A stretch of 64,000 bases of DNA, taken from positions 4,724-68,723 of the IMG/VR virus record IMGVR_UViG_3300009868_000005; one strand, given 5' to 3'. The notes beneath the pieces were generated by a model. The model was not told where the DNA came from. It searched no databases and saw nothing but the letters and a program-made list of their open reading frames with translations. Each line of letters begins with the position of its first letter. Positions within the stretch are counted from its first letter, which is position 1. Source of the DNA: a virus (taxonomy: Duplodnaviria; Caudoviricetes). The translations under genes were made by a program, and so were the position numbers. Below, piece by piece: positions 4,033-54,254 of this stretch.

Positions 4033-4034
4033 AA

Positions 4035-6815: not shown

Positions 6816-7252
6816 TCAAGACATCAATCACCATCGACGCGAAGACCGCCGAGGACACGGAACGCGCCGCGCGCAAGGTTCTCGAACTGCCGCGCAAGGG
6901 CGTCCCGTACTTCGGTCTCACTGCGACGGGACCGCGCGCCGCTGCCCTGCTCGAACGCATCGAAGCGGACCGGCAGAAGTTCGGGGACGACGAAGCCGCG
7001 AAGATGCACGCGGGAGTTGTGCCGGTGGCCTACGCGGGATCGGTGCCCGAGGACGCGGAGGAGATCAAGGCGAAGTGCCAGCCCGTGGCCGACCTTGCGG
7101 CTGCGTTCCCCGTCACGGAAGCCCTGGAAACGAAGGCGCGCGCTGACGTGGCGAAGGCTGAGGCGACGCCGGACGCGGACGCGGTTGTGGCCGTGATCGA
7201 TGCGGCAAAACCTGTCGAGCCGATCAAGGACGGGACGGAGGTGCGGTGGTGA
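6812..7252 (+). CDS. Hypothetical protein
   Basis: ATGA overlap with the upstream stop. Ala/Glu-rich helical sequence with high-GC codon usage. Confidence 0.6.
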   Translation: MIKTSITIDAKTAEDTERAARKVLELPRKGVPYFGLTATGPRAAALLERIEADRQKFGDDEAAKMHAGVVPVAYAGSVPEDAEEIKAKCQPVADLAAAFPVTEALETKARADVAKAEATPDADAVVAVIDAAKPVEPIKDGTEVRW

Positions 7253-7412
7253 CGTCGAATCCGAGGCTCTGGCAGTACTCCCAGAACGCGCGGCGCTCGT
7301 CCTCCGTAGCGACAGAGCCGACCTTCCACCACGTGCCATGCTCACCACGGACCCAAGTCCCGGTGCGCGGCCCGTCGCTCAGCAACATGTCCACCTTCTG
7401 TTCGTCGCTCAT
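7224..7412 (-). CDS. Small antisense-oriented hypothetical protein
   Basis: MSDEQKVDMLL... 62 aa, preceded by TTGCAT(7446-7441)-N16-TACTCT(7424-7419)-N6-ATG. Confidence 0.5.
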   Translation of the reverse strand: MSDEQKVDMLLSDGPRTGTWVRGEHGTWWKVGSVATEDERRAFWEYCQSLGFDVTTAPPSRP

Positions 7413-7428
7413 GCGAGGAGAGTAACAC

Positions 7429-7660
7429 ATGCCCGACTACATGCAAACCATCTACACCTGGCTCCTCGAAAACCCGCACATCTGGGTGCCCATCGTCGTC
7501 TACGTGCTGTGGAACGTCATCCCCCGCACGCCCCCGGCTGACAGGCGGTTGTTTGCGTTGTGGGCCTCGCGCGAGGTGCTCCGCGCAGGCGCTTGCTGCA
7601 CTCGACGACCACGCTGGCAAGGTCACAGACCTGCCGGAGGAACGGGAGCCGAAGCCATGA
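7429..7660 (+). pseudogene. Small membrane protein (holin-like) with an apparent +1 frameshift near 7580
   Basis: AGGAGA RBS and hydrophobic IWVPIVVYVLWNVI in one frame. Tail AQALAALDDHAGKVTDLPEEREPKP* in the +1 frame ends in an ATGA overlap with the next gene. Confidence 0.4.
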
Positions 7661-7815
7661 ATTTCGAACTCGCATACCTGCTCCCTCTGCTTCTTTCCTG
7701 CGGCCCATCGTGGCAAGACGTCAAGACGCATCCCGGCGGCATCTACGAAAATGTGAGGACTGGCGAGTGCTGGAACGAGGCTTACGAGCCCGTGATCTGC
7801 CCGAGGGAGAAGTGA
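7657..7815 (+). CDS. Small lipoprotein-like protein (possible outer-membrane spanin)
   Basis: MNFELAYLLPLLLSC: short hydrophobic stretch ending in a lipobox-like LLSC. ATGA coupling. Confidence 0.45.
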   Translation: MNFELAYLLPLLLSCGPSWQDVKTHPGGIYENVRTGECWNEAYEPVICPREK

Positions 7816-8589
7816 ATGTATAGCGCACAACGAGTCTCGGCACGCAACGCCAACATCTACCTGCCCTTCGACCGGCAGTTCGCAGATGGTGGCGTCCAGG
7901 TCACGGGCAATTGCGGCGGTAAGGCCCCCAGGCCCCAGTACTGCACCATGGGCGACGGGGTCACGGCTGGGACGTTCCCGACCCAACTCGACACCCGGAG
8001 GGGCGTAAGCTTCTCCGACCCCTCGACCGAGTACATGACCGTACCCAGCCCGATCGTGGACGATGAGCCGTTCAGTCTCGTAGCTCTCGTTAGCAACCTG
8101 CCGAGGTACGCCGCATCCCTCTTCACGACACTCGACCCTAACACGGCTGTGGGGGTGTACCTGATCGTCACCCAAAGCACGATCGAAATGTTACTTAACG
8201 ATGGAGCTGGGGGCATGTCTGCGCATTTTACGGTGCTACCATCAGATACCATCGGCGATAAGAAACAGACGAGCATAGTCGTGGCATACGACGGCTCTGG
8301 CAATGCCTCTGGGCTGACGCTATTCCTGGATGGTAAACTACTCCCGTGGACATCCGCATCTGGCTCTCTTGCCGGAACCATTGTTAGCGGGCTCGACGTG
8401 CTCATTGCTGCCGATTGGATGACGGTTGCTCCAGATCCCGTGACGGTTAGCCCGTATTTCGACGCCGGCATCATCCATACGGTTGCGATCTTCCCCTTCG
8501 CCCTGACCGAGCACATGGCAGGCATTCTCGATGCGAGGATGCGGGCCGAAATCCACGTTCTTGAGGATGCTAAGTACACTCCGGTGTGA
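7816..8589 (+). CDS. LamG/concanavalin-like domain protein
   Basis: FSLVALVS...IVVAYDGSGNASGLTLFLDG...GIIHTVAIFPFALT matches the Laminin_G_3-type pattern. Confidence 0.6.
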   Translation: MYSAQRVSARNANIYLPFDRQFADGGVQVTGNCGGKAPRPQYCTMGDGVTAGTFPTQLDTRRGVSFSDPSTEYMTVPSPIVDDEPFSLVALVSNLPRYAASLFTTLDPNTAVGVYLIVTQSTIEMLLNDGAGGMSAHFTVLPSDTIGDKKQTSIVVAYDGSGNASGLTLFLDGKLLPWTSASGSLAGTIVSGLDVLIAADWMTVAPDPVTVSPYFDAGIIHTVAIFPFALTEHMAGILDARMRAEIHVLEDAKYTPV

Positions 8590-8601
8590 TAGGTAATAGC
8601 C

Positions 8602-9546
8602 ATGGCGAAAATGGAACAGAGTAAGACGTGGATCTTTTCTCCCAACATCGTTATTCCGAATGCCGGAAGCCAGATCCTTACGTCACAGGCGACGATGTGG
8701 AGGCTCAAAGAGGAGATGGTCAACACGTTTGGGTGGACGGTACACTCTTCTTCTAACTCTGTAACGGTAGCATCGTCCGACTTGTGGGTTGCCCCATCAA
8801 ATATCGTATTTGGCCCTGGGGCTCGCGGTTGGATCGTGCTGAACATGCCGTTCGCTGGGCAATTACTCATTGATTGCTACGCTAACGGTGCGTCTGGCGA
8901 CGAGAGCGCGGTGTACTTTTCACCCGGATCCCTTTTTTCGGGTGGAACCACTTCGGTTTCACCAACATCTGCTGACAAACTCACCCTGGTTTCGACGGTT
9001 GCTCCAAGACTTTTTCTATCCTACGATTCGGCGAATCAAAGAGTTCTCCATCTTATGCAGAGCAGTGACGGTAAGAACTTTCGATTCGTGCAGATGTCGG
9101 GTGGTAAAGTCTACACCTTCCTAAGTCTTGAGGAGCTACAGTCGCCCCACGCCAACCTACAGAATGGAAGCGTATATTCTGCGTATGGATCTCTAAGTAA
9201 CGGCTTCACGTATGCAAACTACCAAAGAGGAGCCAGATATACCGCTAGATTGGCTGGTGTAGAGGTGGTGGCTATGTTGGTCACGGCTGGATGTAGCGGC
9301 TTGGGGCTCGGAGAGGTTTGGAATGTAAATGACATCGATGGTAACCTACCAAATCTTCCCCCGCAAGTCTTTTCCATAACTGCTGGGAACCTTGCAATGC
9401 TTGGGAACATGCAGGACATGTGGATGGGTCCTTCTCTCAGCGTAAACACAGGTGACACTTACCCATCCGCTGCGCTGGCTCGGCAGTTTATGCAGTTCAA
9501 TCACATAATTATACCGTGGGACGGAAGCGTTCCCGTTGTAGCGTGA
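8602..9546 (+). CDS. Hypothetical virion/tail protein
   Basis: 314-aa ORF co-oriented within the structural cluster. Beta-rich and AT-rich. Confidence 0.6.
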   Translation: MAKMEQSKTWIFSPNIVIPNAGSQILTSQATMWRLKEEMVNTFGWTVHSSSNSVTVASSDLWVAPSNIVFGPGARGWIVLNMPFAGQLLIDCYANGASGDESAVYFSPGSLFSGGTTSVSPTSADKLTLVSTVAPRLFLSYDSANQRVLHLMQSSDGKNFRFVQMSGGKVYTFLSLEELQSPHANLQNGSVYSAYGSLSNGFTYANYQRGARYTARLAGVEVVAMLVTAGCSGLGLGEVWNVNDIDGNLPNLPPQVFSITAGNLAMLGNMQDMWMGPSLSVNTGDTYPSAALARQFMQFNHIIIPWDGSVPVVA

Positions 9547-9553
9547 GTTTGAC

Positions 9554-9778
9554 ATGGCAGAAATTTCCAATGGCGAAGTGGTTCTTGCTCTCACACTCAG
9601 CGAGGGGCGTAGGTGGGACCCCAGTGTGGGGAGCGCCACGATGAATTACCTCATGCGAGGCTGGAGATCCGGCACTGCCGACTACGAGACCTGGATCGCC
9701 GTCGGCGCACCGAATAGCAGCAATCCCAGTGGGCAACCCATTACCGACATCACGATTCAAGCGAGTTGGAGTTCATAA
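9554..9778 (+). CDS. Small virion protein consisting mostly of a shared 41-aa C-terminal module
   Basis: YLMRGWRSGTADYETWIAVGAPNSSNPSGQPITDITIQASW is nearly identical to the C-terminus of 10254..11648. Confidence 0.65.
   Translation: MAEISNGEVVLALTLSEGRRWDPSVGSATMNYLMRGWRSGTADYETWIAVGAPNSSNPSGQPITDITIQASWSS
9647..9769 (+). repeat. Direct repeat copy 1 (partner 11520..11642)
   Basis: 49-bp perfect core 9669..9717 = 11542..11590. Flanking differences are mostly at third codon positions. Confidence 0.95.
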
Positions 9779-10243
9779 ATGCGAAGCTCAATGGTCATTC
9801 AGGGTGTGAAACCGACTCGCGTGCCGGTCTGCGGAACGACGCAAACCACCCTTCTCGACACGTTCCAAACCATCGGCGCTGTCTACATCGACCTGACAAC
9901 CGTCCCCATTCTCAGCGTGAGGTTCCAGGTCATTCTGAGCACGACCAGCGCTGCCGTTGGGCGGGAAGCCGTCATCGATCTGTACGATACCAACGGGATT
10001 CTCAACGGTGGCGTGCCTGCCGTCGTTGCGGGCTCGCAGATCGACACGACGACTGGCTCGCCGCCTCCCGGAGGACCGGCCCCCGATCCGCTCTTCCCCT
10101 CGGCCTACGAGATCGACGTTGCCGCAGCCTTCGCAGGCTACACGGGCAAAGGCGTCTTTGAGTGCAGATTCCGAATCAACGTGGCAGACGCGGTGAACGT
10201 TGCGTCGTGTCAGTCCGCAGACCTTCTTTTCGAAACGAGCTAG
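9779..10243 (+). CDS. Hypothetical virion protein
   Basis: Abuts the upstream stop (TAA-ATG). Beta-rich 154 aa. Confidence 0.6.
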   Translation: MRSSMVIQGVKPTRVPVCGTTQTTLLDTFQTIGAVYIDLTTVPILSVRFQVILSTTSAAVGREAVIDLYDTNGILNGGVPAVVAGSQIDTTTGSPPPGGPAPDPLFPSAYEIDVAAAFAGYTGKGVFECRFRINVADAVNVASCQSADLLFETS

Positions 10244-10253
10244 GGTATAGAAG

Positions 10254-11648
10254 ATGCCTCTTTCAACAATGGTGTCGGGTAGCGGAATTGTCACAGCAAT
10301 TGCGCAGGCTATAGGCCCATCCATACCCGTAAATAGTGATCGATTTGGATGCGGCATAGCCGCCACGGATGATTATCTGGTGGTTGGTGCCCCCGGCTCT
10401 AGCAGGGTATTCTTTTTCGAGAGAGATAGTGGAGGAATCTGGGTTGAGGTTGCCAATTTCTCTTATACGACGGCATGGAGCGCGGGGTCTAGTGTTGATC
10501 TGAAGGGGGATTTTGCAGTAGCTGGAGCCGCCAACGAGGATGAGGGGGGTGGCACAGACGTGGGGACAGTATACGTGTACAGAAGGGTCGCTGGCACCTG
10601 GACTCAAATCCAACAAATATTGTTTCCATTTGCGGTGAGTAGATCTAACTACCATTTTGGTAGATGCGTAGCGATGTCTGGGGACGCATCGGTGCTTGTT
10701 ATTGGACAACCAGACGCAGGGAATAGTGGTATAGGAGGTAGATACTCTTACGTTTATAGGTGGAATACAGGAACGTTACAATATGACTACGAAACCCAAA
10801 TCGGGCCTGGATCGTCGGTTGACTGCGGCTGCTCTATTGCTGTAAGCGACGACTCTAACAGGGTCGCGCTTGGATGTAGGCGAAATTCGTCAAGCAGAGG
10901 TCTCGTTCAGGTATATGAGTACGATACCGGAACTGGGACATGGGGAGCAGGAACGAATATTCAGCCAGCAGACATAGAAACAGGCGATCTGTTCGGCGCA
11001 AGAATTGCCATAATCGGTGATATTATCGCTGCAACATCCCCCGGAGAAGACAACTCAAGAGGCACAAACGCTGGTTCATTATATATATTCGAAAAATCCG
11101 GCGGTGTATGGTCACAGACGGTAAAGATAGTGGGAACAAATTTCATTTCCAACACCACATTCCTAGGTGGCGGAGTTGATGCGTATAGTACCTTTTTAGA
11201 GGATTGGAAGATGGTATTCTATGACGCGAACACCTTGCTATTACCGACACCCAAAGACCAATGTTTTATGGGGACAACAAACACCCCTGGCACACTTAGG
11301 GCATTTGTAGCTTCAGGAGGATGGAGTGGTACGGTAACCGAGCACTTGACCGGGTGGGCACCTCCAACCAGCAATGGAAACGCGGGTCAATGTGCCATAT
11401 CTCGTGGTGGCATCATTATGGGTATACTTCAGGGGTATAACCCCGCAAACTCCACGAGGGGGGCGGTTGTAGATATAGGTGATGTATTTTGGCCGCCGCC
11501 TGGACCTGGTCCTATGCAATATCTCATGCGCGGCTGGAGACCCGGCACTGCCGACTACGAGACCTGGATCGCCGTCGGCGCACCGAATAGTAGCAATCCG
11601 AGCGGACAACCGATCAGTGACATCACGATCCAAGCGAGTTGGCAATGA
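10254..11648 (+). CDS. FG-GAP repeat (integrin-alpha-type beta-propeller) protein
   Basis: Repeats DRFGCGIAATDDYLVVGAPG; GSSVDLKGDFAVAGAANED..GTVYVY; HFGRCVAMSGDASVLVIGQP; DLFGARIAIIGDIIAATSPGED..GSLYIF. Confidence 0.85.
   Translation: MPLSTMVSGSGIVTAIAQAIGPSIPVNSDRFGCGIAATDDYLVVGAPGSSRVFFFERDSGGIWVEVANFSYTTAWSAGSSVDLKGDFAVAGAANEDEGGGTDVGTVYVYRRVAGTWTQIQQILFPFAVSRSNYHFGRCVAMSGDASVLVIGQPDAGNSGIGGRYSYVYRWNTGTLQYDYETQIGPGSSVDCGCSIAVSDDSNRVALGCRRNSSSRGLVQVYEYDTGTGTWGAGTNIQPADIETGDLFGARIAIIGDIIAATSPGEDNSRGTNAGSLYIFEKSGGVWSQTVKIVGTNFISNTTFLGGGVDAYSTFLEDWKMVFYDANTLLLPTPKDQCFMGTTNTPGTLRAFVASGGWSGTVTEHLTGWAPPTSNGNAGQCAISRGGIIMGILQGYNPANSTRGAVVDIGDVFWPPPGPGPMQYLMRGWRPGTADYETWIAVGAPNSSNPSGQPISDITIQASWQ
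11520..11642 (+). repeat. Direct repeat copy 2 (partner 9647..9769)
   Basis: Direct alignment with copy 1. Confidence 0.95.
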
Positions 11649-14548
11649 TTCGAAATAGCGGCGACGAGCAAGTCCTCCGATGGTCCAATCCGATCTTGCC
11701 CCGGACCCTGTATGCCAAGGCGTTCGAGCTTGCGGGAGTGGATCTGTTCACTCTCGCCGCTCGGGTAACTATTGTAGGCGGCACGGTGCAGGCGCTTCTG
11801 AGCCTGGGCACGGCCGGGGCTCGCCGCATCGAGCTTGGTCTCACAGCGGCGTCCGAACCCTATGCCCGTGGCATGGCCCAGGTCGTCCTCGGAGCCGCCA
11901 TCGCTGATGGGGCGCACGACATGGCGTGGATCGTCGAGCCGAGCGGGCAGGTGACATGCATCGTCGATGGCTCTGTGCAAGATGCCGAGTCGATCACGTT
12001 CGGACCCCTATTCGACCGGTTGTGCATTGGTGAGAGCTGCGTCGGTGGCAGCGCATGGGCTGGGGACGTATCGGAACTCTACCTCTACCGACTCGAGGAC
12101 GAGTTCAGCATTCCCAGCATGCTGGGCAGCGACGCCATCATCACCTCTCTGCCTCCCACCGTCTCGATCCTGTTCCCCCTGCCCACTGAGAGCTTCGACA
12201 TCTACGTTGACGGCTCCTCGCTGACGGTGAGCGGGCTCTGTAGCCTTGCCTCGTCTGTACTAGTTGAGATGGACTCGGGCAGCGGCTACGTGCCCTTTGC
12301 GACCGATGCGGCCCCAGGTATCTCGAGCTTCACCGCGACCGGCTCACTGCTCGGCTTCCTCGGCAGCGTGAACATTCGCGCCACGGCAACGGGTCCGGGT
12401 GGCTCTACGCCCTCTGCCGTCGTCTCGATCACCGTGACGCCGAGCGAGTACAAGGACGTGGTCTTTGGCGGGGGTAATGAACACACGAGACATGGGGACA
12501 TTCTTGGATTTGTAAAGGAAAGCAGTTTTTCCGTTTCATTTTGGTGCAAAAATCCGAGCGCAGGGTATGTTATAGCAAAAGCCACAGCGGGAGTCGTTGG
12601 ATGGGGTATTGTGACTGACGGACTTCGACCCGAATTCAGACTAATGTATGGAGGGTTCAACGAACTTCGTGCAAAAATGAGCGTAGCCATACCAGTGGAT
12701 TGGTGTATGGTTGTTATCACGTATCCCGGAGACAATAATGCGAGCAGCGTAAGCATGTATGTGGACGGCATACCGAGAGCTTCTGCGGTAGTATATAATA
12801 ACCTAACCGGCAATATTGCCAACTCCGCAGAATTGAATCTTGGAGGCAGGACCAATGGGTCCTCATGTGTGTCATCCCCCGTGGATGAAGTTTGTGTTTG
12901 GAACAAGGAGCTTTCCGCCGCCGAGGTGGCCGAAATCTACAACGGCGGTGACCCCTTCCTGCCCACCGAGGCTAGCTGTGCCGGGAATCTTGTCGGCTAC
13001 TGGCCCATGGGCGAGGGCGACACCTTCCCCACGCTTCAAGACCGCAGGCTTGGGGCAGAGCTGTCGGCCATCTACCCGACCATCGTCGATACTCGGCTCG
13101 GTACCGACTCAGCAACCTACCCAACCATCCTCGATGCGAGCGGGTCAGGCTTCCACGGGACCATGACGAACATGGCGGTCAACGACATCGTTCTCGACTC
13201 GCCGGGAGGGACGTTCAGCAAGTTCTCGCTCGATCTCGATGGTAGCAATGACTACGTCAACATGGGGAATGTGCTTGGGTTTGAGAGGACGGATAGTTTT
13301 ACCATATCTTGCTGGGTAAAATGTACCGCACTAGCAAATAATGGGCACATATTCGGCAAGATCGGCGATTCGTTTACGGTCCCTGGATACGCACTCGTCA
13401 TTGATTCATCTGGAAGACCATATTTTGCACTGGATAACAGTTTTTCAACCAATTACATAAAGGTCACGTTTACAATTTCTGTAAACGACGGTTTATGGAA
13501 CTTTGTAACGGTTACATACGATGGCAATTCCGACGAGTCCGGCGTACTCATGTATGTAAACGCGAGTCAAATTATCGGTAAGATAATAGAAAGTAACAAC
13601 CTCACAGGAAGTATCTTGACGACTGGACTTTGCACCATAGGACGGAGATACGCCCATCCGTCGACTCTTTTCCCATTCAAGGGTGACATTTCTGACGTGT
13701 CTGTCTGGGACCGCGTTCTCACGCCAGCCGAAATCGCCGAGGTCTACAACGGTGGCGTTCCGACCGACAACCGCCTGCTGTCGAGCGCATCCAATCTGGT
13801 TGGGTACTGGCGCATGGGCGATCAGGTCAGGTTCGACGGCACCATGACCAACATGGCTGTGAACGACATCGTCCTCGACTCGCCGGGAGGGACCTTCAGC
13901 AAGTTCGCCTTGGACTTCGATGGGTCAAACGACTACGTCAAAATGGGTGACGTGCTCAATTTCGAAAATCTCAACAATGAGCCATTTACCGTTGCTGCGT
14001 GGGTGAAGACAACAGACGTGAGTGGATACTTCGTTTCAAAGATGTCATCCACCCCGCAGGGATATGGGTTATACCTGGACGCCTCGGGCTACTTTCAATT
14101 CGCAATAATCAGCGGAGGGCTGTATCGAATAGACATTCGTACAGCAATTACTGTCAATGATGGGAATTGGCACCTTATAGCATGTACATACGATGGGTTG
14201 CAGGTAGCAACTGGGGCGCATACCTATGTGGACGGGGTTGTCTCCGAAGTAGTTCTTGCCAACACGCTGGGAAATAGAACTACGCTCAACATAGGAGAAT
14301 TCAACATCAGCGGAAGAACTAATGGGACCAGCGTATTGACGGAGAGAAGTGGTGACGTGTCGGTCTGGAACCGCGTTCTCACGCCAGCCGAAATCGCCGA
14401 GGTCTACAACGGTGGCGTTCCGACCGACCTTCGCCTGCTGTCGAGCGCAGCCAACCTGGTTGGGTACTGGCGCATGGGCAACCAGGTCAGGTTCGACGGG
14501 ACCATGACCAACATGGAAGCGGGCGACATCGAGACAAGGACATTCTAA
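11645..14548 (+). CDS. Multi-LamG (Laminin_G_3) virion adhesin
   Basis: Tandem units LDxDGSNDYVxMG..FTISCWVK..DGxWxxxxxTYDG..YV..DVSVWxRVLTPAEIAEVYNGG..NLVGYWRMG. ATGA coupling. Confidence 0.85.
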   Translation: MIRNSGDEQVLRWSNPILPRTLYAKAFELAGVDLFTLAARVTIVGGTVQALLSLGTAGARRIELGLTAASEPYARGMAQVVLGAAIADGAHDMAWIVEPSGQVTCIVDGSVQDAESITFGPLFDRLCIGESCVGGSAWAGDVSELYLYRLEDEFSIPSMLGSDAIITSLPPTVSILFPLPTESFDIYVDGSSLTVSGLCSLASSVLVEMDSGSGYVPFATDAAPGISSFTATGSLLGFLGSVNIRATATGPGGSTPSAVVSITVTPSEYKDVVFGGGNEHTRHGDILGFVKESSFSVSFWCKNPSAGYVIAKATAGVVGWGIVTDGLRPEFRLMYGGFNELRAKMSVAIPVDWCMVVITYPGDNNASSVSMYVDGIPRASAVVYNNLTGNIANSAELNLGGRTNGSSCVSSPVDEVCVWNKELSAAEVAEIYNGGDPFLPTEASCAGNLVGYWPMGEGDTFPTLQDRRLGAELSAIYPTIVDTRLGTDSATYPTILDASGSGFHGTMTNMAVNDIVLDSPGGTFSKFSLDLDGSNDYVNMGNVLGFERTDSFTISCWVKCTALANNGHIFGKIGDSFTVPGYALVIDSSGRPYFALDNSFSTNYIKVTFTISVNDGLWNFVTVTYDGNSDESGVLMYVNASQIIGKIIESNNLTGSILTTGLCTIGRRYAHPSTLFPFKGDISDVSVWDRVLTPAEIAEVYNGGVPTDNRLLSSASNLVGYWRMGDQVRFDGTMTNMAVNDIVLDSPGGTFSKFALDFDGSNDYVKMGDVLNFENLNNEPFTVAAWVKTTDVSGYFVSKMSSTPQGYGLYLDASGYFQFAIISGGLYRIDIRTAITVNDGNWHLIACTYDGLQVATGAHTYVDGVVSEVVLANTLGNRTTLNIGEFNISGRTNGTSVLTERSGDVSVWNRVLTPAEIAEVYNGGVPTDLRLLSSAANLVGYWRMGNQVRFDGTMTNMEAGDIETRTF
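13160..13260 (+). repeat. Scaffold repeat A copy 1 (partner 13841..13941)
   Basis: accatgacgaacatggc...gactcgccgggagggac...gactacgtcaa recurs 681 bp downstream. Confidence 0.9.
13694..13856 (+). repeat. Scaffold repeat B copy 1 (partner 14354..14516)
   Basis: 163-bp repeat at a 660-bp offset. 58-bp perfect core 13711..13768 = 14371..14428. Confidence 0.95.
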
Positions 14549-14727
14549 TGGACGATATTCAACACGACGAGATCAGCTCGGGCGACATGTCGGAGTACGA
14601 GATAGCGCTTGCCAGAGCGTGTAGTGACAGAAGCGGCTGGCGAGTAAATGAGAGCCATCTCGGCTACTGCAAACGGGCCTGGGTCGAGGCGTACCGCAGG
14701 CTAGCGAAGGGTGGCGACAATGGATAG
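14548..14727 (+). CDS. Small hypothetical protein
   Basis: TAATG overlap. 59-aa MDDIQHDEISSG...; below the ORF-track length cutoff. Confidence 0.45.
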   Translation: MDDIQHDEISSGDMSEYEIALARACSDRSGWRVNESHLGYCKRAWVEAYRRLAKGGDNG

Positions 14728-14968
14728 GCAAGAGCGACAGTTCACGGACCAGGAACTCGCAATCATCATGCCCTATGTCCGTCACATGGGCAGTCGGGTC
14801 ATCCCGAAGGAGGAGAAGAAGTTCTTCTCCATGGGCCCAGTCGATGTCTGCCGCAAATTGGCGCGGCTCAAGATCCATGTCACGCCTGCGGAGATTCTGA
14901 GGCTCAAGCGGGGGGTGGTTGACGGCGATCGATCGCGCGGTCGTGACGCCCGCCGCGGGCGGGGCTAG
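14720..14968 (+). CDS. Small hypothetical protein
   Basis: Overlaps the previous stop and follows AGGGTGG. MDRQERQFTDQEL... Confidence 0.5.
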   Translation: MDRQERQFTDQELAIIMPYVRHMGSRVIPKEEKKFFSMGPVDVCRKLARLKIHVTPAEILRLKRGVVDGDRSRGRDARRGRG

Positions 14969-15457: not shown

Positions 15458-16996
15458 ATGACGAGCGACACGGAGCATGGTTGCAGCGACTACCTGCGCC
15501 GCAAGTCCGAGAGGGAAAGGGCAGCCCAGTGGCTGGCCGGACTTGGGGAGGGGTACACCCTGGCGCAGGAGGACAAGCTCATCGGGCTTTGCCTCAACCC
15601 CGAGGTGAGAGTGCCCATCAAGTGGGTGGGCGTCACGGTCAAGCACGGCGGCAACCACGGGGTCGTAGCCGTCGCCTCTGATGCCCTTCGGCTTGCGCAT
15701 CCCCAAGGCCCCATCCGCATCAGCGTCAGCTGCCGCGGGGCGCAGATGCTGTGCGACGCCCTCGGTCTGCAGATGCCCACCCCCCTCATCATCGATCGCA
15801 TCTGGGAGCAGGCCAGCCTTCGGGTCACCCCGAAGACCTACACCCCCGACGCGAGCGCGCGGGTTCACGTCCACGACAGGCAGGGGCAGAGCGTCGTCGT
15901 GAGCATGATGGGGATGACGGCCATGATCGCCCACAGCGACCGCATCCAAGCCTCGATTGAGGGCGAGCCCGAGCTTGTCTGCAACGTCGGAAAATGGTGG
16001 GTGTTGTCCAAGTCCATCGCCGGTCAGCCCCCGGGATGCCCGTGCGACTGTGCCAACTACGGGTGGTTCGCCTCTGGCGCCCCCTCTCTGTCGGTCACGG
16101 GGAAGCACCTCTGGCAGCCCGTGAGCACTCGGCACAACCAGTTCCATCGCGACTACTCGCAGACCTTCGTTCCCATTGGCGCGATGATGCTCGTCAACGG
16201 CGTGCCGATGCGCGTTGCGAACGTTCTCCGAGACCCTGAACTCTGCGGCCTCATCTCTCACGAGGGCGTGCTGGAATTCTCCCGGCACCCGAACCTTCCC
16301 TTCTTCACCCCCGATGAGTGTGACGCAACCGACCTCTCCCCCGATCCGAGGCGTGTCCCCTTGCTCGGCGAGGAGCAAGAAGAGGAAGAGATGCCCACCA
16401 AGCCGGTGGGTGCCGTCCTGTCGAACTACGTGCAGGCCGTGAACTACACCCCGGCCGCGGGACGGGCCATTGATCTCGTCGTCATCCACACCATGGAGGC
16501 TCCCGAGAAGCCCGGGACGGCTCGGGGGGTTGCGCAGTGGTTTGCCTCCAAGGACGCCCCGAAGGCCAGCGCTCACTACTGCATCGATGATGCGACCACG
16601 ATCCAGTGCGTTCGCGAACAAGACGTCGCGTGGGCGGCCCCTGGCTCCAACCACAACGGCGTCCATCTCGAGCACGCAGGCTACGCCTCGCAGACGCCTT
16701 CGCAGTGGGACGACGTGTACTCGAGGGCCGTCCTGGAGCGAAGCGCGGTGCTCTGCGCTCGGATCTGTGAGCGTCACCACATCCCCGTCATCTACGTGGA
16801 CGCCGAGGGTCTTCTCCGAGGGGAGCGGGGCGTGACCACCCATGCCCAGGTCACCAAGGCGTGTTCGCTGGCGAAGACCCGAAACGCGCGGACAAGCCCC
16901 TTCTACAAGGCGAAGACGACGCACACGGATCCGGGCCCGAACTTTCCCATGGTCTCGTACCTTGGGACCGTGAGAAGTTTTCTGGAGACGACATGA
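15458..16996 (+). CDS. Two-domain endolysin: uncharacterised N-domain + N-acetylmuramoyl-L-alanine amidase (Amidase_2)
   Basis: C-terminal domain has LVVIHTME, ASAHYCID, VAWAAPGSNHNGVHLEHAG and THTDPGPNFP. Confidence 0.85.
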   Translation: MTSDTEHGCSDYLRRKSERERAAQWLAGLGEGYTLAQEDKLIGLCLNPEVRVPIKWVGVTVKHGGNHGVVAVASDALRLAHPQGPIRISVSCRGAQMLCDALGLQMPTPLIIDRIWEQASLRVTPKTYTPDASARVHVHDRQGQSVVVSMMGMTAMIAHSDRIQASIEGEPELVCNVGKWWVLSKSIAGQPPGCPCDCANYGWFASGAPSLSVTGKHLWQPVSTRHNQFHRDYSQTFVPIGAMMLVNGVPMRVANVLRDPELCGLISHEGVLEFSRHPNLPFFTPDECDATDLSPDPRRVPLLGEEQEEEEMPTKPVGAVLSNYVQAVNYTPAAGRAIDLVVIHTMEAPEKPGTARGVAQWFASKDAPKASAHYCIDDATTIQCVREQDVAWAAPGSNHNGVHLEHAGYASQTPSQWDDVYSRAVLERSAVLCARICERHHIPVIYVDAEGLLRGERGVTTHAQVTKACSLAKTRNARTSPFYKAKTTHTDPGPNFPMVSYLGTVRSFLETT

Positions 16997-18573
16997 GCGA
17001 TACCAGCCGAGCGGTCATCGAGGAGTACGCGAAGCGTGACCCGAACGCGCAAAAGTACCTGAAGGTCTACGATGCCGTCCTCGGCTGCGCGAAGGACCCG
17101 AAGTCGTGCGCCACGAGCTACGCCAAGGACCAGCTGGCGCAGGTGCTCTCCAACGAGACGGGCATCCCGGTTGGCGACATCCGAGGGTGCCTGGACAACC
17201 CACAGCAGTGCGCGCAGCAGCAGGCGCTCAACTACCTGGCGGCCGAGGCGGGCATCAGCCCGGAGGTGTTCCGGCTGGCGGCCGAGTGCGCGAAATCCAA
17301 CGACACGGACAAGTGCGCGAAGGCAGGACTCATCCTGGCGGCAAACGCTGCGTGCACGTACTACACCGCGGGGGCCGGGGCGGTCACGGGGTTGTGCTCT
17401 CGCTTCGCCCCCATCCTCGTGGACTTGGCGTGGCCGACGATCAAGCCTCTCATCGAGTACGCGACCCTGGGGGTTGGTTTCGATGGGCTGGTGAACATCC
17501 TCACCTTCGGCCAGGGGCTTGGTTTCATCCTGAAACCGCTCGGCGGCGCCCTGAGTCTTCTTTCGGGGGGAGACGAGAAGGGCAAATTTTCAGTCAGCAA
17601 GAAGCACGCGGTATTCCATCAAGCGGTCAAGATGACCAACGACGCCGTCAACGGGACCGTCCGGGGCCTGTGGGACGCGCAGTCGGCTGTGAGAACGACA
17701 GCGAGCCTCGGCGCGCCCCGAGGCGACGCGCAGATGGTCGCTTGGGCCAACGACAGGTTCAAGCGGTGGCACGAGATGCGGGCGAGCAAGGAGGCAGCCG
17801 TCTCCTCGGCGCAGAAGGCGTACGACAAGCGAAGCGGGGACGTCTACCAGACGATGAAGCTTCTCACGAACTTGATGATCGCGAAGAGCGAACGCGACTT
17901 CTGGCTCACTTGCCTTGCGCCCCCGTGGGACGTCCCCTTGGCCGCCACCGCGCAGACCGCAGCTCGCGAGCACTTCTACGCGTCGTTCATGGACAAGCTA
18001 GGCGAGTTCGGCTTCACCAAGGCCGCCTGGCGCCAGTCAAAGAAGGGCAAGCGTGTGAGGCTCGACGGGGGCAACTGGTTTGCGTACGGGTGGGAAAACG
18101 TTTGCACCAGCTGCACGCAGAACGACGTCGAGGTGTTCGCCGAGTTGGTCTTGAAGCTTTTCGTCGAGAACCGAATCGCCCGCATCGAGCCGGCCGTCTT
18201 GGCGACCGTGGACAAGATCGTCCGCGAGGTGGCGGCCTCGTCTCCGCAGCTTGCTCCGATGATGCCTCTCGTCTCCCCTTCGGTCTCCCTCGTGTCGGCC
18301 GCGTCTTCTGGCTCGTCGATGACGGTCCTTCCCGTGAGCCTGCTTGAGAGGGGACTGGCGAAGGCCCAGCAGACCAAGACGGTCACCGCGAACCTGACCA
18401 AGCTCATGCAAGCTCGCGTCGCCAAGCCCATCAAGATTCCCGCGGCCAAGGATGACACGAACCCGGCCTTGGTCGCCTGGGAGTGGTCGAGGGCGAACCC
18501 GGAGTACGCCATCCCGGCCGCCTCGGTCGCGCTCGCCCTGGTTGCGCTCGCTGCCCACAAGCTGGCAAGGTAA
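16993..18573 (+). CDS. Large hypothetical protein with C-terminal membrane anchor
   Basis: ATGA coupling. Cys-pair helical repeats near the N-terminus, central hydrophobic Gly-rich segment, C-terminal AIPAASVALALVALAAHKLAR. Confidence 0.7.
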   Translation: MSDTSRAVIEEYAKRDPNAQKYLKVYDAVLGCAKDPKSCATSYAKDQLAQVLSNETGIPVGDIRGCLDNPQQCAQQQALNYLAAEAGISPEVFRLAAECAKSNDTDKCAKAGLILAANAACTYYTAGAGAVTGLCSRFAPILVDLAWPTIKPLIEYATLGVGFDGLVNILTFGQGLGFILKPLGGALSLLSGGDEKGKFSVSKKHAVFHQAVKMTNDAVNGTVRGLWDAQSAVRTTASLGAPRGDAQMVAWANDRFKRWHEMRASKEAAVSSAQKAYDKRSGDVYQTMKLLTNLMIAKSERDFWLTCLAPPWDVPLAATAQTAAREHFYASFMDKLGEFGFTKAAWRQSKKGKRVRLDGGNWFAYGWENVCTSCTQNDVEVFAELVLKLFVENRIARIEPAVLATVDKIVREVAASSPQLAPMMPLVSPSVSLVSAASSGSSMTVLPVSLLERGLAKAQQTKTVTANLTKLMQARVAKPIKIPAAKDDTNPALVAWEWSRANPEYAIPAASVALALVALAAHKLAR

Positions 18574-37668: not shown

Positions 37669-38597
37669 TGTTTTCTAGCTGCCTTTACGTGGACACCGAT
37701 GCTGGATTCGGCTTTCTCAATCCGCATCACGACAGCGCCTTCACCTGCGACAGGGTTGTGCACTGCATCGAATGCGGTTGCGACTTGCCCCCCGGTACGG
37801 TGCACCATCTCTTTGAGGGCACACGACCCAGCCACGTTACCTCGCCAGGCGTGGTCGAGCAGTTTCACACCTGCGTCGGCTGCCAGCGCATCTGGGACGG
37901 GCTTGCCGGCGGGGAACAGGTCTTCAGTACGCTCGACGAGCTGGTGTGGGATGCGTACGGGATCCCCCTCAACGGCGTGCCCGAGGCCGAGGTGGAGATC
38001 GAGTGGGACGAGCTTGCCCAAGAGCACGGCGATACCGATGTCGACCTGCGGAAGGCAATCAGCGCGAAGCCTCCCCTTGAGCAGGTATTCATCGCGCTTC
38101 GCATTCTGGAGGACTTCGTCAGCTTGGGGCAGCTTCACACCATCTTCGAATGGGCCACGAGCGCCCGCTCCGATCCTGCCGACGACAAGTCGATTCAAGA
38201 ACGACTTGAGGACCTCGACGTCCGGGAGAGGCGCATCTCAGACATCAAGAAAAGGTGCGCTCGGGTGTACCGATCCCAGCTACTTGAAGTCGTCGATGCG
38301 ATGAAGCGCAACCGGTGGGCGGAGATGTGGTTTCGATTCGGCTGTGCGTACAGAGCGGCCTGGCAAACGAACCCCTCTCCCGAAGATGAGCGATGGGACG
38401 CGCTCGAGAACTTCGCCCGCTACCTTCTTCGCCGGCAGGTGTTTCGAAACCTGTCTACACCTTCCAGTGAGTCTTCCCTCGCGACTTCTTGCATTTGCCA
38501 CGAGGGGCTGCGGCCGATTTCGGAGTGGCTGATGCGGGAAGGGCAATCCGGGCGGGTCGAAGAAAGGCCGGAACCCTCGGAACCGAAGGCGCCCTGA
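37668..38597 (+). CDS. Hypothetical protein with N-terminal Zn-binding motifs
   Basis: CIECG...HTCVGC; TGATG coupling. Confidence 0.65.
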   Translation: MFSSCLYVDTDAGFGFLNPHHDSAFTCDRVVHCIECGCDLPPGTVHHLFEGTRPSHVTSPGVVEQFHTCVGCQRIWDGLAGGEQVFSTLDELVWDAYGIPLNGVPEAEVEIEWDELAQEHGDTDVDLRKAISAKPPLEQVFIALRILEDFVSLGQLHTIFEWATSARSDPADDKSIQERLEDLDVRERRISDIKKRCARVYRSQLLEVVDAMKRNRWAEMWFRFGCAYRAAWQTNPSPEDERWDALENFARYLLRRQVFRNLSTPSSESSLATSCICHEGLRPISEWLMREGQSGRVEERPEPSEPKAP

Positions 38598-39222
38598 TGC
38601 CCGAGAGCGCCTCGACGGGCGTGGTTGAGCACGTCATCGATGCCCAGAGGTGCTCGGCCCACCCAGCGTAGCCCCGTCCGGTTGGGTGGATGCCGTCGGC
38701 TTGGGGGATCGGGAGGGCCGCGGAGTCGAACGCTGCGATGCCCTGCGAAGTGATGGCAGCACTCACGCGATCGGCAAAGGGCAGCTTCGGGGGCCGTACC
38801 CACAAGAGCTTGCTCGTTTTTCCCACAAGCTCAGCGATCGAGGCGATCTGCGTGGCCAGCTTTTCTTCCGAGGTCATGCCCTTGGAATCGTTGGTCCCCA
38901 GGCTCACCAGAACCACCGTGGGCTGAAGGCGAGCGATCGTCGCCTCAAGGTCCGCCCTTCGCTCACCGAGCCAATGGGCCATCGAGGTACCCGACTTGGC
39001 GAGCGCCTGGAACTCGCAGCCGGACTTGCTCGCGATCTCGCGAAGAGGCGTCGAGAGGCCGACCGCCAGGCTGTCGCCGAACAGAAGGACCCGGTCCCCC
39101 GTCTTGACCGTGGGCTTGCAGCCGATCGTGCCGGAAGCGTTGGACAGGGCGTGCACCGCGCCGACACCGGCAAGAACGAGCACGCCGCCGAGAAGCCAGG
39201 GGGTTGGGGATCGGTAATCCAC
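38455..39222 (-). CDS. SGNH/GDSL hydrolase with N-terminal TM helix
   Basis: FGDSL (block I), LGTND (block III), DGIHP (block V). Promoter TTGCGC-N18-TACGAT-N6-GTG39222. Confidence 0.9.
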   Translation of the reverse strand: MDYRSPTPWLLGGVLVLAGVGAVHALSNASGTIGCKPTVKTGDRVLLFGDSLAVGLSTPLREIASKSGCEFQALAKSGTSMAHWLGERRADLEATIARLQPTVVLVSLGTNDSKGMTSEEKLATQIASIAELVGKTSKLLWVRPPKLPFADRVSAAITSQGIAAFDSAALPIPQADGIHPTGRGYAGWAEHLWASMTCSTTPVEALSGIRAPSVPRVPAFLRPARIALPASATPKSAAAPRGKCKKSRGKTHWKV

Positions 39223-39301
39223 GGGCAGATCGTACCCTGGTTTGTTCGACTTGCGCAACCGCGCCCTGTTGCAGCCGCGGGTCGGGGGTAGAATCAGGTC
39301 G

Positions 39302-39970
39302 ATGATGACCTTCACCAGCGGATGCACCGATCAGGTCCTTGAGGTGCACGACGACGGGACTTTTTGGACCAACGGTGCGCCCATCGTCGAGCCCGTTTGG
39401 CCCACGGACGTGGAGAAGTGGCGGGACCTGATCGACGCGGCAGCACGCAAGCATGACGTGGCCCCGGCCCTCATCGCAGGCGTGATGGCAGGCGAGTCCC
39501 GGGGCAACCCCAAGGCCGGAAGCCCGGTCGGCGCGCTGGGCCTGATGCAAGTCATGCCGCAGTACTTCGGCGGAAACGCGGGCGGCCGGCTCTACGATCC
39601 CGCCACGAACATCGACGAGGGTGTTGGCTTTCTCGCCGAGCTTCACAAGAGGTACGAAGGCAACGTGCTTCGCATGTTGGCCGGCTACAACGCCGGGAGC
39701 GCTAGGTGCCGCGCTTCGGCCCAGTGGGGGCTTGTCCAAAACACCGGCTACATCAGCAAGTGTCTCGGCTACGCCAACGACGCCATCGCTCGAGGCTTCT
39801 CGCCGTACCGACCTTCGCAGGTGAAGACCGAGGTCGTGCAGAAGATCGTCTCGGGAGGCGGGGCGGCTGCCGCGGTTGCGTTCTCACTCGCAGCCATTGC
39901 CTACGTTCTGGCTGACCGACAGTGGAGACTCACTGATCGGCTCGTCGGGTCGATCTCGGAGGCGATTTGA
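39302..39970 (+). CDS. Soluble lytic transglycosylase (SLT) domain + C-terminal TM tag
   Basis: AGESRGNPKA.S..GALGLMQVMP, NIDEG, AGYNAG. Tail AYVLADRQWRLTDRLVGSISEAI. Confidence 0.93.
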   Translation: MMTFTSGCTDQVLEVHDDGTFWTNGAPIVEPVWPTDVEKWRDLIDAAARKHDVAPALIAGVMAGESRGNPKAGSPVGALGLMQVMPQYFGGNAGGRLYDPATNIDEGVGFLAELHKRYEGNVLRMLAGYNAGSARCRASAQWGLVQNTGYISKCLGYANDAIARGFSPYRPSQVKTEVVQKIVSGGGAAAAVAFSLAAIAYVLADRQWRLTDRLVGSISEAI

Positions 39971-40380
39971 GTAAGCCGACCTGGCCCGACCAAAGCTCGA
40001 TCAAGGTCGTGTGGGTTTCCGACGACGACGATGGAGGATTCCCGCAGTGGCAACTGGATCGTGCTTGGAAGATCGCGAGGGCTTCCGAGATCAACCTCCT
40101 TTCACACATGGACTTGAAGGCGATCGCGCTTGTGAAGGGACATGTAGCAGGCGCACTTTTCGACTCCTTTGTGGCCGGCAAGTACTCGTTCGACATCGTG
40201 GTCGAACCGGCCTACCGTGGGCGGGGGGTCGGAGGGGTTCTACTTGATGCAGGTCTGGATGAATTTGCCGAGCTGCAGCAATACGGTGCTGTGCTCGAAT
40301 TGAACGTGGTCAACCCGTACATGCGAGCCGCGCTCTTGCGACGTGGATTCAGACAGAATCGAAAACGGCTTTCCCCATGA
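39967..40380 (+). CDS. GNAT acetyltransferase
   Basis: DIVVEPAYRGRGVGGVLL (motif A). TTGA overlap. Confidence 0.8.
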   Translation: MSKPTWPDQSSIKVVWVSDDDDGGFPQWQLDRAWKIARASEINLLSHMDLKAIALVKGHVAGALFDSFVAGKYSFDIVVEPAYRGRGVGGVLLDAGLDEFAELQQYGAVLELNVVNPYMRAALLRRGFRQNRKRLSP

Positions 40381-41216
40381 CAAAACCGGCAATCATCATG
40401 GAAATGGCGTGCACCTCGCACGTCTGCGGCTCGATGATGGCGCAGCTGTGGCCCGACCCGGCCACGCGGCCCTACCTCGTGCAGGAGACCGCGAGCGGCT
40501 TTTCTGCGGCCCACCGCGACCACTTCAAGTCCATCGCGGCGGCCAATGAAGGGCGCATGATCGGCCCGGTGCTCGCCAAGCGAGGGGTGGACCCCGCGGA
40601 CGTGAGCGAGGTTGCGCTCGTGGGCTTCTCGGCCGGGTGCTGGGGCGTGGCCGAGATGCTCGGCGACCCGGATGCAAGCTCGGTGAGCACGGTCTTGTGC
40701 GTCGATGGGCTCCACTACCCGACGGGCGCCAAGTTCGAACCCTTTGCGGCGCGGGCGGCGGCGGGCGAGGTCATGCTGGTGGACCTGTACTCCGCGATCC
40801 CCGTGACCGGCTACACCTCGACGCGTGACAGCGCCCGCAAGCTCGCCGGCATCGTCGGCGCCCCAGCCGTCTCGCCGCTGCTCTCTGGGGCTGACGAGTC
40901 CTTCCAAATCGGTCACTTCTACGCGATCGGCTTTCCTGGCAGCGACAAGCAGGCGCACATCGACCAAGTCAACCGCTACCAGCCCCTCGCCTGGGAGGCC
41001 ATCGTGGCTCCGTGGCTCGGGAGCAGCCCTGGCGCTCGGATCGACCCCGGGGGCGGTCAGGGCGAGCCCGCCAAGCCGCCTTCGGCCGTCGTGGGTCCTT
41101 CGGCGCCTCCGGTCGTCTCTCCGGGCTCCTTGGTGGCGTTTGGCCTCGGCGTGGGCGCCTTGCTGCTGGCTGACATGAGGTGGCGGCTGGTCGATCGAAT
41201 TCTCGGGAGGGCATGA
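40377..41216 (+). CDS. Alpha/beta-hydrolase-like protein + C-terminal TM tag
   Basis: VGFSAG nucleophile elbow, VDGLH, late His (QAHIDQ). Tail LLLADMRWRLVDRILGRA. Confidence 0.7.
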   Translation: MTKPAIIMEMACTSHVCGSMMAQLWPDPATRPYLVQETASGFSAAHRDHFKSIAAANEGRMIGPVLAKRGVDPADVSEVALVGFSAGCWGVAEMLGDPDASSVSTVLCVDGLHYPTGAKFEPFAARAAAGEVMLVDLYSAIPVTGYTSTRDSARKLAGIVGAPAVSPLLSGADESFQIGHFYAIGFPGSDKQAHIDQVNRYQPLAWEAIVAPWLGSSPGARIDPGGGQGEPAKPPSAVVGPSAPPVVSPGSLVAFGLGVGALLLADMRWRLVDRILGRA

Positions 41217-41806
41217 TGCCAAGCAAGAGCCTCGCGGATCTGACACCCGATACCAGGCAGGCGGCCGAGATGCTGCTTTCGTACGCGGCATCGGAAGGCA
41301 TCGACGTCATCGTAACGCACACGCTCCGCACCTGCGACGAGCAAAACGCCCTGTACGCCCAGGGCCGCACCGCGCCGGGGGCCAAGGTGACCTCGGCACC
41401 GGGCTGCCGAAGCTGGCACACCCATGGCCGCGCCATCGACCTCATCGTCAAGGACGGCGGCCAGCTGGTGCACAACGGCCTGGACGAGCGCTACTCAAGG
41501 CTGGGAGCGTACGCCAAGAGCATCGGCATGAAGTGGGGCGGCGATTTCAAGGACTATGGTCACTTCGAATACCACCCTGGTATCTCCATCGAGCAGGTGT
41601 GCCCCGACCCGGCGTCCTGCGGGACCGTCCCAGTGACCGCCGACCCCCCCCAGGTAGACGTTCGTCCCGGCGCTTCCCTTGCCAGTATCACGCCCGGGGT
41701 CGCCGTTGCTGCGCTCGCCCTCGGCGCCGTCGCCTACATGTTCGCGGACATCCAGTGGCGCCTGACCGACCGGCTCGTCGATTCGATCAAGGAAGCGATC
41801 GGGTAG
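41213..41806 (+). CDS. M15 family L-Ala-D-Glu peptidase (CwlK/Ply500-like) + C-terminal TM tag
   Basis: RTCDEQNALYAQGRT.PG.KVT, SWHTHGRAID, WGGDFKDYGHFE. Tail AYMFADIQWRLTDRLVDSIKEAIG. Confidence 0.93.
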   Translation: MMPSKSLADLTPDTRQAAEMLLSYAASEGIDVIVTHTLRTCDEQNALYAQGRTAPGAKVTSAPGCRSWHTHGRAIDLIVKDGGQLVHNGLDERYSRLGAYAKSIGMKWGGDFKDYGHFEYHPGISIEQVCPDPASCGTVPVTADPPQVDVRPGASLASITPGVAVAALALGAVAYMFADIQWRLTDRLVDSIKEAIG

Positions 41807-41835
41807 TTGCACAAGCGTAACGCTTGTGATACGCA
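41807..41835 (+). promoter_or_regulatory. Promoter with a perfect palindromic operator
   Basis: TTGCAC-N17-TACGCA. CACAAGCGT-A-ACGCTTGTG at 41810..41828. Confidence 0.6.
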
Positions 41836-54038: not shown

Positions 54039-54254
54039 ATGATGGATGCGCTCTTCGTAGCTTCCGCCTCGCTGTGCATGATCACCTTGCTGCTGATGTT
54101 TGCCTACCAGTACGGGAGGATGCTTTCGCTCGAGCGGCGTGTGGCTGGTTTGGAGCGACGCAACGCTGATTCCGATCGTGCGTACGACGCGGCACGCAAC
54201 GGCCGCAAGGTCACAAGGCCACTCACCATCGACGGACGCTTGGACGTGCAGTGA
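54039..54254 (+). CDS. Small TM protein
   Basis: GAGGTGA RBS; hydrophobic N-terminus. Confidence 0.6.
   Translation: MMDALFVASASLCMITLLLMFAYQYGRMLSLERRVAGLERRNADSDRAYDAARNGRKVTRPLTIDGRLDVQ

Follow-up and report, generated by a model that had tools for sequence, protein, structure and literature searches.

Endolysins whose transmembrane domain (TMD) is C-terminal have already been published (PMC7143992, PMC8943055, PMC8879335). M4Lys, from Salmonella phage BSPM4, can lyse E. coli by itself, with no need for Sec or a holin, but its TMD is essential both for this lysis and for membrane localisation; expressed without the rest of the protein, the TMD is bacteriostatic (PMC7143992). In LysAP, from Acidovorax phage AP1, membrane localisation and lysis likewise depend on the TMD (PMC8879335). 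For the Enc34 endolysin, the authors described the export route as unknown and stated that no known translocation mechanism fits (PMC8943055). Here we analyzed a window of 64,000 nucleotides, which corresponds to bases 4724–68723 of a single 68,723-bp virus contig (IMGVR_UViG_3300009868_000005; its phage is called W below). W has an operon encoding three hydrolases, a lytic transglycosylase (SLT), an alpha/beta hydrolase and an M15 peptidase. Each of them ends in a variable Pro/Ser/Gly linker, a hydrophobic, Ala/Gly-rich transmembrane (TM) helix and the motif AD..WRL.DR. An earlier note on this DNA had described these C-termini and overlooked the published endolysins.

M4Lys, ORF39 of the Hafnia phage Enc34, the Siskin (Chivirus type) endolysin and LysAP have the same layout as the W proteins: an N-terminal hydrolase, no N-terminal signal or signal-anchor-release (SAR) sequence, a flexible linker, a C-terminal TM segment and a short charged end. 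The fit to this class is architectural only, as the catalytic domains of W are SLT, M15 and alpha/beta hydrolase domains instead of PHA02564 or lysozyme-like domains. The TMD sequences of W are unrelated to those of M4Lys, Enc34 and LysAP, and the Enc34 TMD consists of two helices. The published phages have one anchored enzyme each, whereas the uncultured W has three enzymes encoded in one operon, with a homologous predicted anchor and a conserved motif after the TM helix. The best explanation is that the W tail is a clade-specific elaboration of the published, mechanistically unsolved class of C-terminal-TMD endolysins.

The tail module is located at 39860..39967 of the window on the SLT protein (GAAAAVAFSLAAIAYVLA-DRQWRLTDRLVGSISEAI), at 41118..41213 on the alpha/beta hydrolase (SPGSLVAFGLGVGALLLA-DMRWRLVDRILGRA) and at 41693..41803 on the M15 peptidase (PGVAVAALALGAVAYMFA-DIQWRLTDRLVDSIKEAIG), all on the + strand. 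A six-frame regular-expression search of the window and of the whole contig found exactly three copies of WRL.DR, all at these C-termini. A 30-residue hidden Markov model (HMM) was built from 17 tails of W and its relatives and searched against the six-frame translated genome. It returned the three tails only (E 5e-17, 6e-14 and 1e-11), and the next best hit had an E of 1.3. BLASTP among the three proteins aligned the tail alone: the SLT protein and the M15 peptidase shared 17/22 identical residues (E 2e-8), and the hydrolase aligned with the M15 peptidase at E 1e-3. Together with the reading of the open reading frames (ORFs), these searches bore out the three C-termini as the earlier note had described them.

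The silent-site codon differences quoted in that note were also correct. Compared in pairs, the 30-residue modules have 11–17 identical residues, 4–5 of which are encoded by differing codons, and their nucleotide identity is 56–66%. These values indicated that the modules are homologous and old and do not come from a recent DNA copy, so the proposal that the protein motif was conserved rather than recently copied held. Concerted evolution by recent gene conversion was considered and rejected, because orthologous tails (W versus R1; R1, R2 and R3 denote related uncultured phages) are closer to each other than paralogous ones and the codons differ.

The 17 tails were aligned on an invariant Asp (17/17), which was taken as position 0 of a module of about 35 residues. 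The TM helix contains 50–61% G+A+S+T and carries a stripe of small residues, A-15, A-12, G-8 (in 14/17), A-5 and A-1, with an aromatic residue at -4. This stripe suggests helix–helix packing of the predicted TM segments. After the Asp come a Trp (+3, in 13/17), a residue that varies (+4) and the sequence L-T-D-R/K-L-V (+5 to +10). The hydrophobic stretches, with Kyte–Doolittle (KD) values of 1.9–2.0 over 19 residues, were found at residues 202–220 of 242, 246–264 of 279 and 167–185 of 208 in the SLT protein, the hydrolase and the M15 peptidase, respectively, and 14–20 residues separate the TM helix from the C-terminus. The post-TM segment is amphipathic (hydrophobic moment, muH, 0.52–0.63). 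In the AlphaFold 2 (AF2) model of the hydrolase, a disordered linker (residues 223–242) precedes a helix (249–269), which breaks at R270, the +4 position, and continues as a second helix (271–278).

The tails of W and R1 are 80–87% identical. Conservation of the tail equals that of the catalytic domains, and the linker drifts in length and sequence. The residue at +4 tends to match within one phage: it is R, R and R in W, R, Q and Q in R1, G, G and G in R2, and N and D in R3. The three R2 proteins were found on contigs of equal sizes, supporting their co-location on one contig. In W, the three +4 Arg codons all differ (AGA, CGG and CGC). The matching of +4 within phages suggests contacts of the tails, either with one another or with a single shared partner.

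The SLT, GNAT, hydrolase and M15 genes form one translationally coupled operon on the + strand, with the overlaps TTGA, ATGA and ATGATG and GGAGG-type ribosome sites. The SLT gene occupies 39302..39970 (Pfam SLT, E 1.4e-22). Its ORF is open from 39242, and the likely start is the ATG at 39302/39305 (MMTFTSGC), which is kept in relatives; in the orthologues P0004 and P0055, conservation starts at M(V/M)TFTSGCT. The hydrolase gene (40377..41216), whose ATG overlaps the stop of the GNAT gene (ATGA), encodes an esterase-like alpha/beta serine hydrolase, assigned by its fold, which has a linker rich in Pro, followed by the TM helix and the tail. The M15 gene (41213/41216..41806) encodes a VanY-like L-alanyl-D-glutamate peptidase with a linker, TM helix and tail (Pfam Peptidase_M15_4/VanY, E 2e-9 and 6e-8). 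GGGAGGG lies upstream of its ATGATG start, which overlaps the stop of the hydrolase gene. The M15 protein matched PHROG endolysin families (E 1e-25), and its tblastn matches, which were endolysins of Listeria, Bacillus and Pseudomonas phages, covered the catalytic part only.

Hydropathy analysis found no N-terminal hydrophobic segment in the first 30 residues of any of the three hydrolases, and the conserved N-terminus of each is where its catalytic fold begins. A Pfam scan found no wall-binding domain on them. The data show three hydrolases with homologous predicted anchors and complementary predicted bond specificities, encoded in one coupled operon, with neither a signal peptide nor a wall-binding domain. 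On the best reading, the operon would be the lysis-enzyme set of an uncultured tailed phage. The anchor could instead serve retention and nothing else, replacing a wall-binding domain and holding the enzymes on debris so that neighbouring hosts are spared, with the motif reflecting common descent. This agrees with the lack of a binding domain on all three enzymes and with the distant esterase-domain homologues, which carry PG_binding-like and further domains instead of a TM helix; moreover, distant orthologues manage with a plain TM helix and a basic end. We regard pure retention as improbable, as it leaves unexplained why the juxtamembrane helix is conserved equally to the catalytic domains and why +4 matches within a phage with different codons.

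A fourth envelope hydrolase is encoded next to the operon and divergently from it. It is an SGNH/GDSL-type, DUF459-like esterase at 38455..39327 (- strand; Pfam DUF459, E 1e-8; Lipase_GDSL_2, E 3e-7; probable start about 39222). In place of the C-terminal tail, it has an N-terminal signal or anchor, with a TM segment at residues 44–62 of the long ORF. Its ordinary N-terminal signal suggests that the phage uses Sec signals for early export and that the C-terminal anchors are a deliberate alternative.

Homologues of the M15 peptidase in other phages pointed in the same direction as the lysis reading. A C-terminal TM segment is present in 48 of about 90 homologues; 45 of these 48 have no N-terminal signal, and the other three show borderline N-terminal hydrophobicity. 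Most of the C-anchored homologues begin with the same catalytic-domain start, MPSKSLxDLTPDTR. In IMGVR_UViG_3300009506_000017 (L138; 72,434 bp), three consecutive C-anchored genes lie at 3625–5281, the M15 gene first, followed by genes for two proteins of unknown type (188 and about 175 aa). All three proteins have a Gly-rich TM segment and basic ends of 2–3 residues (GGKR, SSKR and KGRS), and the run is directly 3′ of two beta-helix (pectinesterase/DUF1565-like) tailspike candidates.

In IMGVR_UViG_3300028903_000001 (L007; 119,895 bp, complete, with terminal repeats), at least six C-anchored proteins are encoded within 9 kb (5754–14851, + strand). All of them have a C-terminal TM segment and a basic end. 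Besides the M15 peptidase, they comprise a possible LysM protein (a sub-threshold Pfam match) and four others, with lengths of 189, 221 (coiled coil), 283 and 84 aa. The gene for the anchored M15 is flanked by 2-TM and 3-TM holin-like ORFs, interleaved with further C-anchored genes. Elsewhere in this genome (L141), there is a gene for an esterase homologue that has a Pro-rich linker and ends in a TM segment. A third contig (L018; 130 kb) encodes C-anchored M15 and SLT proteins, an Amidase_2/PG_binding protein and a 3-TM ORF. Judged from their gene content, these three contexts look like lysis cassettes. The position of C-anchored M15 genes beside holin-like genes and downstream of tailspike-like genes points to lysis.

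These contexts also bear on whether the three enzymes belong to the virion. PRD1 P7 and Toil gp23 are virion-membrane transglycosylases with an SLT plus C-terminal TM layout (PMC5773508). Of the W proteins, only the SLT protein resembles them in joining an SLT or lysozyme-like domain to a C-terminal TM segment. PRD1 and Toil have genomes of 15–17 kb and an internal lipid membrane, whereas W is large, has tail-fibre-like genes and also carries the tail on a peptidase and an esterase. If the W hydrolases were entry enzymes, which was the second option of the earlier note, their tail would load them into the particle or insert them into the host membrane on ejection, in the manner of PRD1 P7 or T7 gp16. 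Besides the shared SLT architecture, matches of the SLT protein to PHROGs named internal virion protein and lytic tail protein, next to its endolysin PHROG matches, favour this explanation. Phage T4 targets its internal proteins by a shared tag on unrelated proteins, which is a precedent for it. Several features speak against it: the phage looks tailed and large, with no sign of an internal membrane; the operon is outside any structural module; an L-Ala-D-Glu peptidase, an esterase and a transglycosylase have the make-up of a lysis set; and the C-anchored M15 genes of relatives adjoin holin-like ORFs. A role in entry is therefore doubtful.

How the enzymes would cross the membrane is a separate question. 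One possibility is that they are self-exporting lysins. Their TM-plus-tail segments would be holin-like, so that the enzymes co-oligomerise, permeabilise the membrane at a critical density and export their own catalytic domains, with no separate holin and with one composite "holin" timing all three activities. M4Lys and LysAP set a precedent, as both lyse E. coli alone and only with the C-terminal TMD, and the bacteriostatic TMD of M4Lys was likened by its authors to a holin with a charged C-terminus. In W, no small multi-TM ORF adjoins the operon, the small-residue stripe is typical of TM–TM packing and +4 co-varies within phages. However, the C-anchored M15 genes of relatives do adjoin holin-like genes, W itself encodes a holin-like 105-aa membrane protein elsewhere, and the TM helices are poor in polar residues. 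Self-export thus has perhaps an outside chance, although a better one than pure retention or virion entry. We give a similarly tentative rating to a "lysin-borne holin", a heteromeric, self-assembling tail with a co-evolving TM-plus-juxtamembrane helix, through which the three hydrolases would co-oligomerise and either form a lesion or recruit a single factor that gives wall access.

SAR endolysins provide a comparison for a common partner. In phage Mu, the releasin gp25 frees a tethered SAR endolysin, which owes its dependence on gp25 to residues in its short cytoplasmic segment (PMC9239132). In SAR endolysins, as is predicted for W, a weakly hydrophobic, Gly/Ala-rich TM segment tethers a muralytic enzyme, and a juxtamembrane segment can impose a release that depends on a phage-encoded membrane protein. 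No DUF2730 or releasin homologue was seen in W, where no search was aimed at one. The SAR domain is N-terminal and is inserted co-translationally by Sec, whereas the TM segment of W is C-terminal and cannot act as a signal-anchor. Bacterial tail-anchored proteins of the ElaB/YqjD, DjlC and Flk type have cytoplasmic functions, a Gly/Ala-rich helix and often a basic extreme C-terminus. The W proteins resemble them in the Gly/Ala-rich helix and in having a single TM segment in the last 20–40 residues and no signal peptide, and differ from them in that the cargo domains of W act on the cell wall.

Weighing these comparisons, we consider it somewhat probable (about 55%) that the shared anchor puts the three lysis activities under one membrane trigger and then keeps the enzymes on debris. 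After their synthesis in the cytoplasm, the three hydrolases would enter the cytoplasmic membrane post-translationally, as tail-anchored proteins. There, they would be held together by TM–TM packing, by a holin or a releasin-like factor of the phage that recognises the juxtamembrane helix of all three, or by both. The parts of the module that would serve this role are the TM helix with its small-residue stripe, the Asp and a presumably interfacial Trp, and the kink followed by a short amphipathic helix (LTDRLV...). One membrane event would then let the glycan-strand, peptide-stem and ester-bond activities reach the wall together, at a single site and moment, and the anchor would afterwards retain the enzymes on membrane debris.

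Several observations weigh against this common-trigger explanation. In W, the operon has no holin-like gene next to it, and such candidates as there are lie about 40 kb from it. The operon is situated among non-structural genes of unknown function, with no obvious lysis position. The co-variation at +4 comes from four phages, two of them close relatives, and is a small, phylogenetically nested sample. By hand count, the charges flanking the three TM segments are near neutral and give no N-in or N-out call. Members of the wider M15 family have a basic end after the TM segment (mean +1.75 versus -0.56 pre-TM), which by the positive-inside rule favours an N-out orientation, unlike that of a classical tail-anchor. 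Finally, neither a host nor, therefore, an envelope type was assigned from the DUF5131 and GTDB comparisons.

The distribution of the tail was examined in large protein collections. A search of 1.84 billion representative proteins with the tail profile gave five matches, each to an orthologue of the SLT protein, the M15 peptidase or the esterase. When 5.8 billion proteins were searched by a word index, the motif was matched four times, again in orthologues of the same three enzymes, and a scan of IMG/VR with the tail alignment gave none. Further orthologue searches added up to a handful of related uncultured phages plus fragments as motif carriers, among them R1 (contigs of 13,952 bp), R2 (contigs of 24,547 and 130,204 bp) and R3 (a contig of 6,576 bp). 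In distant esterase orthologues (P0009, P0010 and L003), the motif decays to a plain TM helix and a basic end. The limitation of the matches to three orthologous groups in a few related phages indicated that the tail is clade-specific and no widespread sorting signal.

The earlier note had proposed a virus-encoded sorting tag. A homologous module with the sequence of a membrane anchor on three unrelated catalytic domains was supported, and the part of the proposal that made it a general sorting tag fell away: the tail HMM, expected to find diverse N-terminal enzymes in related viruses, found the same three enzymes only. The note had itself held that occurrence in just three orthologous groups would speak against such a tag, and this is largely what the large protein searches found. 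It was right in setting the tail apart from the LPXTG, PEP-CTERM, GlyGly-CTERM and MYXO-CTERM signals. No known sorting-domain model matched the whole proteins or the isolated tails (NCBIfam at E up to 1; Pfam at E up to 0.01). Those signals share with the W tail a C-terminal TM helix, a charged end and diverse enzymes as carriers. They differ in their dependence on a signal peptide at the N-terminus, on a signature motif that precedes the TM helix and on a cognate enzyme for processing; W showed none of the three.

The tripartite look of linker, TM helix and charged end and its recurrence on unrelated enzymes would fit a genuine sorting signal, one that a dedicated machine of the host or the phage reads and may also cleave, as in the LPXTG/sortase, PEP-CTERM/exosortase and GlyGly-CTERM/rhombosortase systems. 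We consider such a signal very unlikely. The three proteins have no N-terminal signal peptide, the conserved D..W.LTDR lies C-terminal of the TM helix and not before it, and the Pfam and NCBIfam sorting models failed to match. The motif is confined to the three orthologous groups of one small phage clade and decays in distant orthologues. In addition, no sortase, exosortase or rhombosortase-like gene and no processing protease was noticed among the contig ORFs scanned, which were part of the total.

The middle protein of the three (279 aa) has no Pfam or PHROG family. A single-sequence AF2 model was discarded, as its predicted local distance difference test (pLDDT) score was 37; with an alignment of 11 sequences (A5), the pLDDT was 87.5. 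In that model, residues 1–218 match serine esterases, lipases and cutinases of the alpha/beta-hydrolase fold (VIA-align Z 10–12; Foldseek lipases and cutinases), so the label "alpha/beta-hydrolase-like" in the earlier note was right. The nucleophile elbow GFSAGCW, the motif DG.H, Y146 and T149 are invariant in 11 homologues, down to 21% identity. The nearest Atlas clusters are viral hypothetical proteins. Scans of IMG/VR and of GTDB genomes with the esterase, and tblastn against 50,697 phage records, gave no match, and a scan of JGI metagenomes gave homologues that were only 28–36% identical among the matches listed. The model suggests that the middle protein is probably an envelope-acting esterase rather than a peptidoglycan hydrolase. 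The esterase family is a modular, predicted wall-directed one without a Pfam model. On two JGI metagenome contigs (L002:74-1315 and L004:865-2166), the esterase domain (GFSAGCW...DG.H) is fused to further C-terminal regions. By eye, these regions resemble a peptidoglycan-binding repeat and a Cys/His wall-hydrolase domain.

Other features of the operon region are as follows. The GNAT-type acetyltransferase gene (39967..40380, + strand; Pfam Acetyltransf_1, E 1e-5) encodes a protein that lacks both a TM segment and the tail. GGAGG lies upstream of its TTG start, which overlaps the stop of the SLT gene (TTGA), so that an unanchored enzyme is translationally coupled between SLT and esterase. The divergent intergenic region between the SGNH esterase (-) and the SLT operon (+) is short (39222–39302), and a TAGAAT hexamer is located a few bases 5′ of the ATG at 39302. 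In the M15 catalytic domain (41216–41620), C40, C64, C129 and C135 are invariant in 24 homologues (alignment A7). A CPDP..C motif is located just N-terminal of the linker, and the cysteines possibly form disulfides or a second metal site. A possible operon-end hairpin with an 8-bp stem and a 3-nt loop (41810..41828, + strand) is directly 3′ of the M15 stop; it is weak, with -15.5 kcal/mol and a z of only -1.66.

The window has a G+C content of about 60%. The contig carries genes for RecT, a YqaJ exonuclease, a single-stranded DNA-binding protein (SSB), DnaQ-like exonucleases, a GP88-family protein, methyltransferases and a radical-SAM enzyme, as well as LamG fibre-like genes. Scans of the contig ORFs identified no capsid, portal or terminase genes in the 68,723 bp. 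The phage seems to be tailed and large, judged from its LamG fibre genes, its length of at least 68.7 kb, its relatives of 72–130 kb and its Atlas neighbours in Uroviricota. A blastn search of the operon against the 50,697 phage records gave no match, and no cultured phage among them is alike at the DNA level. Actinobacteria were considered as the host and could not be confirmed: the DUF5131 homologues are mostly from Mycobacterium and Gordonia phages, yet Rhizobium and Microcystis phages have homologues of equal identity. In a GTDB scan with the M15 alignment, the only matches were homologues that lacked the tail or were distant, on contigs of Gammaproteobacteria, Sphingomonas, Bacteroidota and Bacillota, and they gave no host call.

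Three further loci of W encode candidate membrane proteins. One of them, at 54039–54254 of the window, is the gene for a 71-aa protein. A 570-aa protein (16861–18573, +) has a C-terminal TM helix and a basic end (...AIPAASVALALVALAAHKLAR), no Pfam or PHROG match and no AD..WRL motif. As it also appears to be C-anchored, C-terminal anchors may serve beyond the lysin operon in W. Upstream of the window, at contig bases 2166–3541 (locus L006) and thus about 40 kb from the enzyme operon, a run of three small genes is a candidate for a holin/spanin-like trio. They encode the 105-aa holin-like protein (contig bases 2166–2482), with one or two TM segments, a 132-aa coiled-coil protein whose TM segment is close to the C-terminus, and a protein of 145 aa that has a lipoprotein-like signal (…VSSSGC). 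The post-TM sequence EFGLRDRV of the 132-aa protein was considered as a fourth tail-like motif and dropped, as the tail HMM scored it at 0.1 bits.

How an endolysin with a C-terminal TMD reaches the peptidoglycan is an open question in phage lysis, and the W clade is a natural three-protein test system for it. The clade offers one anchor on three separable enzymatic reporters, together with natural variants at +4 (R, Q, G, N and D). A lysin-borne holin, if true, would explain how signal-less C-terminal-TMD endolysins cross the membrane. The esterase family, which has no Pfam model, could be catalogued. Large uncultured phages commonly encode signal-less, C-anchored M15 lysins as well as several C-anchored proteins in a run, suggesting that this architecture is under-described rather than exotic.

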